Source: Eledone cirrhosa (lineage: Eukaryota). Taken from it: 64,000 nucleotides of DNA. Shown here piece after piece: positions 1 to 6,817 of this stretch. Where the stretch lies: NCBI GenBank assembly GCA_964016885.1, contig OZ024741.1, forward strand, positions 230,640,001 to 230,704,000. The letters are read 5' to 3'. The position numbers and the translations under genes are program-made. The notes under the pieces are model-generated. The model saw nothing but the letters and a program-made list of their open reading frames with translations, did no database searches and was not told the origin of the DNA. Within the stretch, counting starts at the first letter, position 1. Each line of letters starts with the position of its first letter.

Positions 1-259
1 TGGTCAGCTTTATCTCCCCTGTTTGCTGAAAATTGAAAGTAAGTGAGACTGTCACTACTCTAAAACAATAGCATAAGGTCTTCGAAATTCTTTTAATTAA
101 GCATACACTGTATTGCAAAATACCCTATATATACATACATATATCTATCGATATTTCAGAGCACCAATTCCAATTTTCATTTCCTGCTTGACCGGCGACC
201 GCTCTGTATAATCAGATCCTGATTATTACTAGAATTCTATAAGAATCAAAGATTCATGA

Positions 260-350
260 TTTTCAGCAATCAGGTGGAGTATTTGGCTTTGATAAGTACC
301 TATCAGTTCGAAACAGAGCTCTGTCAGCTTTATCTCCCCTGTTTGCTGCA
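260..350 (+). ncRNA. Type I hammerhead ribozyme motif, U3-A8 variant (representative copy in the satellite)
   Basis: GGCT|TTGATAA(289-295)|GTAC-ctatca-GTTC|GAAA(310-313)|CAGAGCTCTG|TC(324-325)|AGCT. Stem I is extended by GGAG/CTCC and the flanking inverted repeat. One stem II mismatch in this copy. Confidence 0.8.
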
Positions 351-3310: not shown

Positions 3311-6300
3311 TTGTATTGCAAAATACACTATATATACATTCATATATAATTAAGCTTACAGTGTATTGCAAAATACCTTATATATATATATTCATATATA
3401 TATCGCTATTTCAGAGCACGAATTCCAATTTTCAAATTTTGCTTGACCAGCAATCGCTCGGTATAATCAGTTCCTGATTATTACTAGAATTCTATAAGAA
3501 TCAAACATTCATGATTTTCAGCAAACAGGTAGTGTACTTGGCTTTGAAAAGTACCAATCAGTACAAAACAAAGCTCTTTCAGATTTAGCCCCCCTGTTAT
3601 CTGAAAATGTATCGTAAGTAATACTCTTACTACTCTAAAACAATAGCGTAATGTTTTCGAAATACTTTTAATTAAGCATACAGTATATTGCAAAATACAC
3701 TATATATACATTCATATATATATCGTTATTTTAGAGCACCAATTCCAATTATTTCTGCTTGACGGGCAACCGCTCTGTATAATCAGTTCCTGATTATTAC
3801 TAGCATTCTATAAAAATCAAACATTCATGATTTTCAGCAAACAGGTGGAGTACGTGGCTTTGATGAGTACCAATCAGGACGAATGCTGAAAATTTAAATA
3901 AGTGAGACTGTCATTACTCTATAGCAATAGCGTAAGGTCTTCGAAATGCTTTTAATTAAGCATACAGTGTATTGCAAAATACACTATATATACATTCATA
4001 TATATATATCGCTATTTCAAAACACCAATTCAAATTTTCAATTTCTCCTTGAGCGGTAACCGCTCCGTATAATCAGTTCCTAATTATTACTAGAATTCAA
4101 TAAGAATCAAACACTCATGATTTTCATCAAACAGGTGGAGTACTTGGCTTTGATATTTACCAATCATTACAAAACTGTCAGCTTTATGCCCCCATGTTTG
4201 CTGAAAATTTAAACTAAGTGAGACTGACACTACTCTAAAACAATAGCGTAAGGTCTTAGAAATCCTTTTAATTAAGCATACAGTCTATTGCAACTCCAAT
4301 TTTCTATTTCTGCTTGACCGGCGACCATTCTGTATAATCAGTTCCTGATTATTACTACAATTCTATAACAATCAAACATTCATAATTTTCAGCAAACAGG
4401 TGGTGTACTTGGCATTGATAAGTACCAATCAGTAAGAAACAGAGCTCTGTCAGCCATATCTCCCCTGCTTGCTGAACTATTTAAAGTAAGTGAGATTGTC
4501 ACTACTCTAAAACAATAGCGTAAGGTTTTCGAAATGCTTTTAAATAAGCATACATTATATTGTAAAATACACTATATATACATTTATATCTATATCGTTA
4601 TTATAGAGCACCAATTCCAATTTTCAATTTCTGCTTGACCGGCAACCGCTCTGTATAATCAGTTCCTGATTATTACTAGAATTCTAAGAATCAAACATTC
4701 ATGATTTTCAGCAAACAGGTGGTCTACTTGGTTTTGATAAGTACCAATCAGTACGAAACAGCACTGTCACCTTTATCTCCCCTGTTTGCTGAACATTTAA
4801 AGTAAGTGAGACTGTCACTACTCTAAAACAATAGCGTAAGGTCTTCGCAATTATTTTAATTAAGCATACAGTGTATTGCAAAATACACTATATATACATT
4901 CATATATATATCGCTATTTCAGAGCACCAATTCCAATTTTCAATTTCTGCTTAAGCGGCAACAGCTCTGTATAATCAGTTTCTGATTATTACTAGAATTC
5001 TATAATAATCAAACATTCATGATTTTCAGCAAACAGGTGGTGTACTTGGTTTTTAAGTACCAATCAGTACAAGACAGAGCTCTGTCAGCTTTATTTCCCC
5101 TGTTTGCTGAAAATTTAAAGTAAGTAAGACTCTCACTACTCCAAAACAATAGCGTAAGGTTTTCGAAATTATTTTAATTAAGCATACAGTATATTTCAAA
5201 ATTCACTATATATACATTCATATAAATATCGTTATTTTAGAGCACCAATTCCAATTTTCAATTTCTTCTTGACCAGCAACCGCTCTGTATAATCAGTTTC
5301 TGATTATCACTAGAATTCTATAAGTATCAAACATTCACAATTTTCAGCAAACAGATGAAGTAATTGGCTTTGATAAGTACCGATCAGTACGAAACAGCGC
5401 TCTCTACGTTATCTCCCCTGTTTGCTGAAAATAAAAATAAGTGAGACTGTCACTACTCTATAACAGTAGCGTAAGGTCTTCGAAATGCTTTTAATTAAGC
5501 ATACAGTGTATTTCAAAATACACTATATATACATTCATATATATCGCTTTTTCAGTGTACGAATTGCAATTTTCAATTTCTGCTTGACCGGCGACTGCTC
5601 TGTATAATTTGTTCATGATTATTACTAGAATTCTATAAGAATCAAACATTAATAATTCTCAGCCAACAGGTGGAATACTTGGCTTGAATAAGTACCAATC
5701 AGTACGAAACAGAGCTCTGCCAACTTTATCTCCTCTGTTTGTTGAAAATTTAAAATAAGTGAGACCGTCACTACTCTAAAACAATAGCGTAAGATCTTCG
5801 AAATGCTTTTATTTTAGCATACAGTGTATTGCAAAATACACTATATATATTCATTCATATATATATCGCTATTTCAGAGCACCAATTCAAATTTTCAATT
5901 GCTGCTTGACCGGCAACCGCTCTGTATAATCAGTTCCTGATTATTACTAGAATTCTATAAGAATCAAACATTCATGATTTTCAGCAAACAGGTGGTGTAT
6001 TTGGCTTTGATAAGTAGTAATCAGTACAAAACAGGGCTCTGTCCGCTTTATCTACCCTGTTTGCTGAAAATTTAAAGTAAGTCAGACTCTCACTACTCTA
6101 AAACAATAGCGTAAGGTTTTCGAAATGCTTTTAATTAAGCATACAGTATATTGCAAAATACACTCTATATACATTCATATATATATCGTTAATTTAGAGC
6201 ACCAATTCCAATTTTCAATTCCTGCTTGACCGGGAACCGCTCTGTATAATCGGTTCCTGATTATTACTAGAATTCTATAAGAATCAAACGTTCAGGATTT

Positions 6301-6817
6301 TCAGCAAATAGGTGAAGTACTTGGCTTTGATAAGTACCAATCAGTACAAAACTGTCAGCTTTATCTACCCTGTTTGCTGAACATTTAAAGTAAGTGAGAC
6401 TGTCACTACTCTAAAACAATAGCGTAAGGTTTTCGAAATGCTTTTAATTAAGCATAAAGTATATTGCAATATACACTCTATATACATTCATATATATATC
6501 GTTATTTCAGGGCACCAATTCCAATTTTCAATTTCTGCATGAACGGCAGCCGCTCTGTGTAATCAGTTCCTGATTATTACTAGAATTCTATAAGAATGAA
6601 ACATTCATGATTTTCAGCAAACAGGTGGAGTACTTGGCTTTGATAAGTACCAATCAGTACAAAACAGAGCTCTGGCAGATTTATCTCCCCTGTTTGCTGA
6701 CCATTTAAAACAATAGCGTAAACTCTTCGAAATGCTTTTAATTAAGCATACATTGTATTGCAAAATACACTATATATACATTCATAGATATATCGCTATT
6801 TCAGAGCACCAATCCCA

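Follow-up and report, generated by a model that had tools for sequence, protein, structure and literature searches.

A 320-bp hammerhead retrozyme family with a switched core base pair and Penelope-type insertion ends in Eledone cirrhosa

A 64,000-nucleotide stretch of the Eledone cirrhosa genome (contig OZ024741.1, positions 230,640,001 to 230,704,000; hereafter the window) begins with a head-to-tail array of a 320-bp unit with a GC content of 0.33, and we analyzed this unit across the 3.0-Gb genome. The unit represents a family of retrozymes without long terminal repeats (non-LTR retrozymes), in which the pair between hammerhead core positions 3 and 8 occurs in two compensated forms, C3-G8 and U3-A8, and whose insertions have a clear Penelope-type anatomy; the element class and the core variant themselves are already published. 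We hold with great confidence that the family descends from a hammerhead ribozyme kept under selection, and its mobilization by Penelope-type machinery is very likely. The full explanation that we prefer, a non-autonomous non-LTR retrozyme of which the window array is a single insertion, is probable. A preliminary description of the window had proposed a retrozyme carrying a ribozyme; this identity is strongly supported here, but the cleavage of the array transcripts and the origin of the array as a satellite are not.

The majority sequence of 20 aligned units consists of stem I GGCU/AGCU, core UUGAUAA, stem II GUAC/GUAC with the loop CAAUCA, GAAA, a palindromic stem III, and the cleavage triplet GUC, together with GGAG/CUCC and a 15-bp closing inverted repeat. 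The consensus given in the preliminary description, with U3-A8 in place of C3-G8, was thereby reproduced. Core bases U4, G5, A6, A9, G12, A13, and A14, the pair A15.1-U16.1, and H17 were present both in the array majority and in the copy at 26516, and all core bases other than 3 and 8 were invariant in the 31 copies selected for the covariation analysis below. Judged by sequence, the majority unit has all the parts of a type I hammerhead, with U3-A8 in its core. A strict type I descriptor, which admits C3-G8 or U3-A8, matched once in the window (26516) and once in 40,000 dinucleotide shuffles of a 320-nt unit. In the matching copy (26487-26580), stem I lies at 26512-26515/26553-26556, U3 at 26516, A8 at 26521, stem II at 26523-26536, GAAA at 26537-26540, and stem III at 26540-26551, and the predicted cut falls between 26552 and 26553. 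The tandem array announced earlier at 1-6817 was borne out by Tandem Repeats Finder (TRF; period 318-320, matches 86-87%) and by unit alignment, although its real start lies ~4.3 kb upstream of the window. The copies of the element at this locus are as follows.

1-6817, plus strand: 320-bp retrozyme array, the downstream 6.8 kb of 11.1 kb (~35 unit lengths), from TRF and unit alignment
G000:C2:230635680-230640000: upstream part of the window array, ~4.3 kb before the window
G000:C2:230635307-230635687: inverted 5'-truncated arm capping the window array and ending in (TA)n
259-350, plus strand: first full ribozyme slot of the window, with a long stem I, a U3-A8 core, a stem II with one mismatch, and a palindromic stem III
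6794-6817, plus strand: 3' tail, ~24 bases past an internal TA-rich end point, at one insertion end only
6818-6937, no strand: (AT)n target run that closes the array
25814-26356, minus strand: inverted arm of a second, short insertion of the 320-bp element, ending in the (AT)n run 25698-25823
26359-26718, plus strand: forward arm of the second insertion, tailed and ending in a TA run
26487-26580 (core copy 26512-26556), plus strand: the one copy in the window that the strict descriptor accepts as a complete hammerhead

Genome-wide, the exact U3-A8 motif occurred at least 628 times (reversed control, 0), and a looser pattern (C or U at position 3, A or G at position 8) matched at least 1,306 times. 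A search with the canonical core recovered a sister subfamily of the same 320-bp unit, and exact C3-G8 copies, belonging to canonical CUGANGA sister subfamilies, numbered 324. Four subfamilies were distinguished: C3-G8 with stem II AUAC/GUAU or GUAC/GUAC, and U3-A8 with GCAC/GUGC or GUAC/GUAC. Among the first 100 listed of the 1,306 matches, the 3-8 combination read by eye was U-A in 61, C-G in 34, U-G in 3, and C-A in 2, so that 95 copies carried a Watson-Crick pair. A tighter pattern that left both positions fully free gave U-A in 87, C-G in 8, U-G and C-C in 2 each, and C-A in 1 of the first 100 of 635. The earlier statement that a search for CUGANGA would miss the motif proved right for the 64 of the first 100 listed copies that have U3. 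We also assigned 181 copies to classes solely by the bases downstream of the hairpin (12 unreadable copies included, 2 unclassed copies excluded): one class had C-G in 64 of 72 copies and the other U-A in 92 of 107, and the two differed at 22 columns up to the hairpin end and 10 beyond it, of 227.

Stem covariation across genome copies, proposed earlier as a check, was examined in 31 hand-picked copies with 26 stem pairs, in which 95.3% of the cells pair. Two-sided changes occurred in 7 of the 26 pairs, including 2 of 4 in stem II, where the subfamilies have G-C or A-U as pair 1 and U-A or C-G as pair 2, and 4 of 13 in distal stem I; the number of two-sided cells was reached by none of 500 shuffles. 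A tree of 58 copies built from the flanks only placed all 27 C3 copies on one branch (100/99) together with one U3-A8 copy. This grouping implies that the 3-8 pair switched once between C-G and U-A, as far as the sequences tell. An extra C3-G8 variant, from a loose end in three runs of unrecorded kind, was absent from G000, so that no outgroup was available and the direction of the switch is unrooted. The C3-G8 pair has been described as forming in the tertiary-stabilized active conformation (PMC3884650), and position 8 is unpaired in the rod fold that competes with the hammerhead; a coupling between 3 and 8 would therefore depend on the tertiary pair that forms in the active core, and the joint change points to catalysis as the trait under selection.

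Several results weigh against this reading. Of 500 shuffles, 45 had at least as many pairs with two-sided changes as the real alignment, stem III is invariant in the alignment and contributes no covariation, and the 3-8 switch amounts to one event only. The proximal part of stem I is short, with 4 pairs before U-U mismatches set in. In Rfam, the best match on 26470-26600 was Hammerhead_HH9 (19.9 bits, E 0.0067); the search recommended in the preliminary description thus returned a hammerhead at the top, but far under the gathering score of 52, with HH9 scores of 19.9 and 23.3 bits. As regards a tertiary contact between loops 1 and 2, both loop 2 and the 5' bulge can be aligned with HH9, and stem I has a shorter 3' side that varies from one subfamily to another. 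A window-wide Rfam scan gave only microsatellite-driven microRNA (miRNA) matches among 150 of 166 rows, with no hammerhead there. As separate observations, L160 holds a U3-A8 copy whose flanks group in the C3-G8 class, either a recombinant or an intermediate, and four C3-G8 copies ~44 kb apart (G000:C2:338330090, 338374316, 338418283, and 338463051) represent a segmental tandem duplication. Selection against C3 combined with a palindromic loop was considered and rejected: 0 of the first 100 of the 324 C3-G8 copies had this combination, and linkage by descent explains it equally well.

The ends of dispersed copies were surveyed in 46 arms from 29 loci, which were selected through a sequence word lying outside the ribozyme. 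The copies had fixed 3' ends in TA runs, variable 5' ends, and frequent inverted partners: 43 of the 46 arms ended at unit position 236-250 or 262-282, a TA run followed 36 of these 43, and 13 of 17 inverted pairs consisted of one short and one tailed arm, both insertion ends sitting in TA runs. Such marks have been reported for Penelope-like elements (10.1101/2021.04.23.441226). No arm had its 5' end at the cut site, whereas 32 of 46 crossed it and 15 of 46 were longer than one unit, which leaves circles or uncut multimers as templates; a cut linear monomer cannot have served. These results indicate that the dispersed copies were made by retrotransposition. Viral contigs gave no match.

A candidate helper, separate from the 320-bp unit, was found in the window.

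21254-25698, no strand: two-armed Hydra-type Penelope-like insertion, candidate helper
23066-24046, minus strand: remnant of its reverse transcriptase (RT) and linker

Its arms are 1.6 kb long and inverted (21254-22884 and 24013-25630), and one of them is tailed; both ends of the insertion lie in (TA)n, and near each of them is a minimal C3-G8 hammerhead of its own (cores at 21361, minus strand, and 25526, plus strand). The family of this insertion is very abundant, with 57,422 first-look candidates and 256 scored matches in the genome. Open reading frames (ORFs) at L144 and L141, read together with window 21254-25698, showed a DKT motif, a CxCX5C linker, a C-terminal GIY-YIG domain without the two inner cysteines, the (TA)n target, and the hammerhead. 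Atlas neighbors of the helper ORF carry HTH_animal and GIY-YIG, and Pfam and PDB searches with it returned nothing significant. At L166:2656-4814 (G000:C3:328052655-328054813), two elements meet head to head between two TA runs: a tailed retrozyme arm and a Hydra-type element that is truncated at its 5' end and comes from a second family with a higher GC content. The junction lies at the 5' end of the retrozyme arm and lacks a TA run. This locus looks like one insertion from two templates, the alternative being two insertions followed by a deletion. Counting against a Hydra-type helper, such a chimeric junction was found in 1 of 148 loci, the Penelope arm of L166 has no recognizable complete hammerhead at its end, and the unit showed no similarity to the ends of Hydra-type elements, a comparison made at 17 loci and in the window and confined to the Hydra type. 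On balance, a Hydra-type Penelope element as helper is reasonably probable. An atypical junction between a retrozyme and a related element was seen at L167. Short inverted-pair elements between TA runs, with a minimal hammerhead of canonical core, were present at L168:5421-5971, L170:6437-7001, and L166:2145-2650 and are possibly a second retrozyme or Penelope-end family.

Two other identities of the unit were weighed. If it were a hairpin-rich satellite that resembles a hammerhead by chance, one could understand why the Rfam gathering score is unreached, why the listed rows of the window-wide scan contain no hammerhead, and why the minimum-energy fold is not a hammerhead; the rarity of descriptor matches in shuffled units, the 324 sister copies with an exact CUGANGA core, and the compensated changes at positions 3-8 and in stems I and II largely refute this explanation and leave it a negligible probability. 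The unit might instead be the terminal repeat (pLTR) of an unfound autonomous Penelope-like element, its copies being truncated ends. Penelope pLTRs are reported to carry hammerheads (PMC4209133) and Xenopus retrozymes to resemble pLTRs (10.64898/2026.07.22.740005), and the insertion ends are Penelope-like. However, arms longer than one unit run into another unit, none of 148 loci showed a same-strand 5' continuation into a Hydra-type ORF (two Hydra-type protein queries), and the local Penelope elements carry a different, minimal hammerhead, which makes a pLTR very unlikely.

The origin of the window array was examined from its ends and from the divergence of its units. Both ends are of Penelope type, with an inverted 5' arm and (TA)n upstream and a one-sided tail followed by (AT)n at 6818. 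Of 32 intervals, 6 deviated in length and were set aside; the 26 full-length units differed by 6.7% from their own majority and by 12.3% from each other. The pairwise distance was flat with spacing (0.116-0.130 at lags 1-16), singletons made up 0.65 of the variants compared with 0.27 expected under a coalescent, and only 2 of 325 unit pairs shared variants in excess of the permutation maximum. Neither classical satellite mark, likeness between neighbors or common shared variants, was found in the window array; L092 showed these marks in part. A private base was carried by 25 of the 26 units and by the inverted arm; a different base was present in 95 of 102 dispersed copies. Since the inverted arm shares this base and is no more diverged than the units (4.2% off the array majority; unit mean, 6.7%), the expansion was not later than the insertion. 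On the same sites, the array was 6.0% off the majority and 29 dispersed copies were 3.3% off, 4 of them by nothing; the array therefore belongs to the older insertions, and the family has been mobile since. Dispersed copies with the loop of the array (n = 4, chosen by exact words) were 2.3% off the array majority. The same star-like pattern was observed in L164 (10 units), which belongs to the same subfamily and had no variants collinear with the window array, with at most 4 shared in 260 pairs. The mutation spectrum was strand-symmetric, as in DNA-level decay. These results point to one insertion of ~35 units, probably made by rolling-circle reverse transcription, and we lean toward a single rolling-circle event. 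The insertion ends and the divergence pattern run counter to the earlier proposal that the unit had been amplified into a satellite.

Two loci disagree with a general rolling-circle rule. L092 (G000:C1:268923500-268931163, 1-7664) holds a period-4 higher-order repeat with ribozyme-less units, which cannot be derived from a monomer circle, and L145 shows structured sharing of variants. Reading L092 as the product of a tetramer circle with one live ribozyme was rejected as a clean test, the order being irregular; a further copy of the higher-order repeat was present on the other strand. ADAR-type editing of the template was likewise rejected for the window array, where A>G (1.36%) was not in excess of T>C (1.26%); the values at L145 were 2.62% and 0.55%. 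Units L093:9582-9900 and window 2464-2782, nine places apart, share 23 derived bases, indicating a later conversion or duplication within the array.

The ribozymes of the window array are decayed. Slots are spaced at ~320 bp, and all 19 in 1-6817 are damaged, so that the tandem array of hammerhead ribozymes in the preliminary description consists of slots that are no longer intact. The full descriptor was passed by 0 of 19 slots in 1-6817 and by 2 of 13 upstream, which are not adjacent; two consecutive complete ribozymes, the mark of an active element in 10.64898/2026.07.22.740005, were not found in the window array. Among the 26 full-length units, 7 kept all 12 core bases, and positions 3 and 8 read U-A in 22, G-A in 2, and C-A in 2. 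Core bases mismatched at 9.3%, compared with 6.6% outside the ribozyme, and no open frame of at least 120 codons starting before 6788 was found. The window array shows no sign of selection since insertion. It had been proposed that array transcripts are cut into ~320-nt monomers; because the array ribozymes have decayed, these transcripts are instead expected to be mostly uncut.

Weighing against the ribozyme, nearest-neighbor models favor a rod that uses stem III and U3-G5; for copies from the window, the minimum-energy fold has stem III paired with the 5' side of the core. The hammerhead lay above the minimum by a mean of 4.3 kcal/mol in 45 U3-A8 copies, in which it was not the preferred monomer fold, and by 1.9 kcal/mol in 39 C3-G8 copies; the model disregards tertiary contacts and dimers. 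Likewise unfavorable, mismatches in the window array were more frequent in the ribozyme (10.2%) than elsewhere (6.6%), and complete ribozymes were rarer in arrays (6 of 83 slots, four arrays) than among dispersed copies (10 of 26), both of which would be expected if long inserts stem from uncut transcripts; 8 of 9 predicted Xenopus retrozyme dimers are reported not to cleave in vitro (10.64898/2026.07.22.740005). In the U3-A8 class, stem III forms a perfect palindrome of 12 nt, whose duplex has a predicted energy of -20.1 kcal/mol, compared with -12.2 kcal/mol in the C3-G8 sisters, and dimeric cleavage via a palindromic stem III has been described for animal hammerheads (PMC7229834 and PMC4209133). 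Predicted dimer and circle folds, computed from two L010 units with one damaging change each, are illustrative only. The modeled preference for the rod could mean that monomer circles are gated and so stay uncut, or else that the ribozyme is only weakly active. It is likely that intact U3-A8 copies would cleave measurably. Contigs of the three runs of unrecorded kind covered the unit in many variants with no end pile-up and are uninformative on expression.

Two rival accounts of the array take up these points. Unequal exchange or slippage could have lengthened a short Penelope-type insertion of one or two units in place, in the way usually assumed for the birth of satellites and acknowledged as a model in 10.64898/2026.07.22.740005. 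The unit pair with 23 shared derived bases and the structured sharing in L092 and L145 suit this account, and the private base fits any single founder; the lack of a neighbor effect at lags 1-16, the singleton excess, and the low divergence of the inverted arm, which has the private base in common with the units, do not, and we consider such an expansion improbable. Alternatively, the family could be a retrozyme by descent whose U3-A8 form cuts poorly or not at all and spreads as uncut read-through multimers, with long arrays copied from linear transcripts of other arrays. The 4.3 kcal/mol advantage of the rod, the few intact ribozymes in arrays, the higher-order repeat with inherited stem damage in L092, and the low in vitro success rate in 10.64898/2026.07.22.740005 can be cited for it, and crossing of the cut site suits uncut templates as well as circles. 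By contrast, stem II pair 2 was U-A in 75 and C-G in 20 of 98 copies of the U3-A8 class, and the presence of both forms means that pairing stayed under selection in that lineage; the window array and L164 lack collinear sharing, and the mutation spectrum has the strand symmetry of DNA-level decay. We regard this account, too, as unlikely, if slightly less so than expansion in place.

In the explanation that we prefer, the lineage would have kept a type I hammerhead under selection while the 3-8 pair switched once. Multimeric transcripts of intact source copies would self-cleave after GUC, probably as dimers via the palindromic stem III, and the 320-nt monomers would be circularized. A (TA)n-targeting Penelope-like RT/endonuclease, most likely of the Hydra type, would then prime at the internal UA-rich stretch, ~140 nt downstream of the cut, and copying would pass through the junction. 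Most events would yield short two-armed inverted insertions, and rarely many laps would yield an array; the window array would be one such insertion, subject to neutral decay since. In a more specific version, which we offer as speculation, the array would be the fossil of one rolling-circle integration in which a Hydra-type Penelope RT ran ~35 laps around a 320-nt circle, and the ribozyme of the U3-A8 lineage would be dimer-gated: the palindromic loop 3 would lock the monomer circle in the inactive rod, only multimers would be cut, and U3 would weaken the rod enough for opening.

The window also contains other repeats. A 176-bp dispersed repeat inserted into the array at a later time:

3127-3302, plus strand: 176-bp dispersed repeat, later insertion into the array

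Further copies lie at 19410, 34602, 37788, 41520, and 48710; the copies are 85-92% alike, and the repeat was present in 33 of 165 loci. ARAGORN found no transfer RNA (tRNA) in it, and it resembles what we take to be the tRNA-derived short interspersed elements of octopods. Two decayed elements resembling long interspersed elements (11877-15105 and 49540-54245) have endonuclease- and RT-like frames, with a weak RVT_1 match at 13871-14701. A long near-perfect inverted repeat surrounds an (AT)n run at 39696-39909, where the Rfam miRNA match is a composition artifact. Integrase-like frames at 61943-63221 (minus strand) presumably represent an LTR retrotransposon remnant, named by motifs.

The cricket hammerhead satellite is a ~330-bp tandem repeat with a type I hammerhead, a palindromic stem III, and a C3-G8 core, and is active. 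Newt satellite 2 and schistosome Sm-alpha (PMC7229834 and PMC6765202) are likewise ~330-bp tandem repeats with a type I hammerhead and a palindromic stem III, thought to act as dimers; as described there, they have a canonical C3-G8 core and demonstrated activity, whereas the window array is a decayed single insertion. Closer relatives in organization are the non-LTR retrozymes of coral, mussel, and axolotl (PMC7229834 and 10.64898/2026.07.22.740005), which share a tandem non-coding unit of 150-450 bp with low GC, one type I hammerhead per unit, and co-occurring Penelope-like elements. Animal retrozymes in tandem, with circular forms and a Penelope element proposed as helper (PMC7229834), a link of retrozymes to pLTRs with arrays of up to 300 units (10.64898/2026.07.22.740005), and rolling-circle integration as a proposal (both reports) are all on record. 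Compared with these accounts, the 320-bp family has U3-A8 in the larger subfamilies beside C3-G8 sisters and a 4-bp stem III within a perfect 12-nt palindrome; it adds fixed internal 3' ends, the (TA)n target, and inverted arms; and its unit, known here from sequence alone, has no homology to a local pLTR. U3-A8 is a known natural hammerhead variant with the same compensated core (PMC3088659). It has ~1,300 matches in Schistosoma Penelope-like elements, among which the Cercyon elements of Schistosoma mansoni share both the compensated core and the Penelope link (PMC4209133). In that account, the Schistosoma U3-A8 hammerheads are minimal, mostly single, and tied to autonomous elements, in contrast to the three real stems, HH9-like loop 2, and non-coding tandem setting of the 320-bp unit. 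Hydra-clade Penelope-like elements (10.1101/2021.04.23.441226) resemble the family in the (TA)n target, the inverted 5'-truncated arm, the one-sided tail, and the hammerhead near the end, but the 320-bp unit is non-coding and has no detectable sequence in common with local Hydra-type elements. The family had been thought undescribed: although the U3-A8 core and tandem animal retrozymes are published, we found no account of this family, nor a U3-A8 tandem retrozyme or retrozyme arrays with Penelope ends, in the literature searched, to which unsearched supplements may add relatives.

Penelope mobilization and circle integration of retrozymes have so far been proposed, in the reports cited, from co-occurrence and pLTR similarity. 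In the 320-bp family the mechanism is recorded in the insertion ends, a candidate helper can be named, and the origin of an array becomes testable. The family also provides a natural switch of the catalytic 3-8 pair within one lineage, and surveys based on CUGANGA would miss the larger part of families of this type. If the dimer-gated view is true, the sequence of the U3-A8 lineage would itself explain how the circles of animal retrozymes escape self-cleavage, and the C3-G8 and U3-A8 forms would be a natural pair for testing dimer gating.

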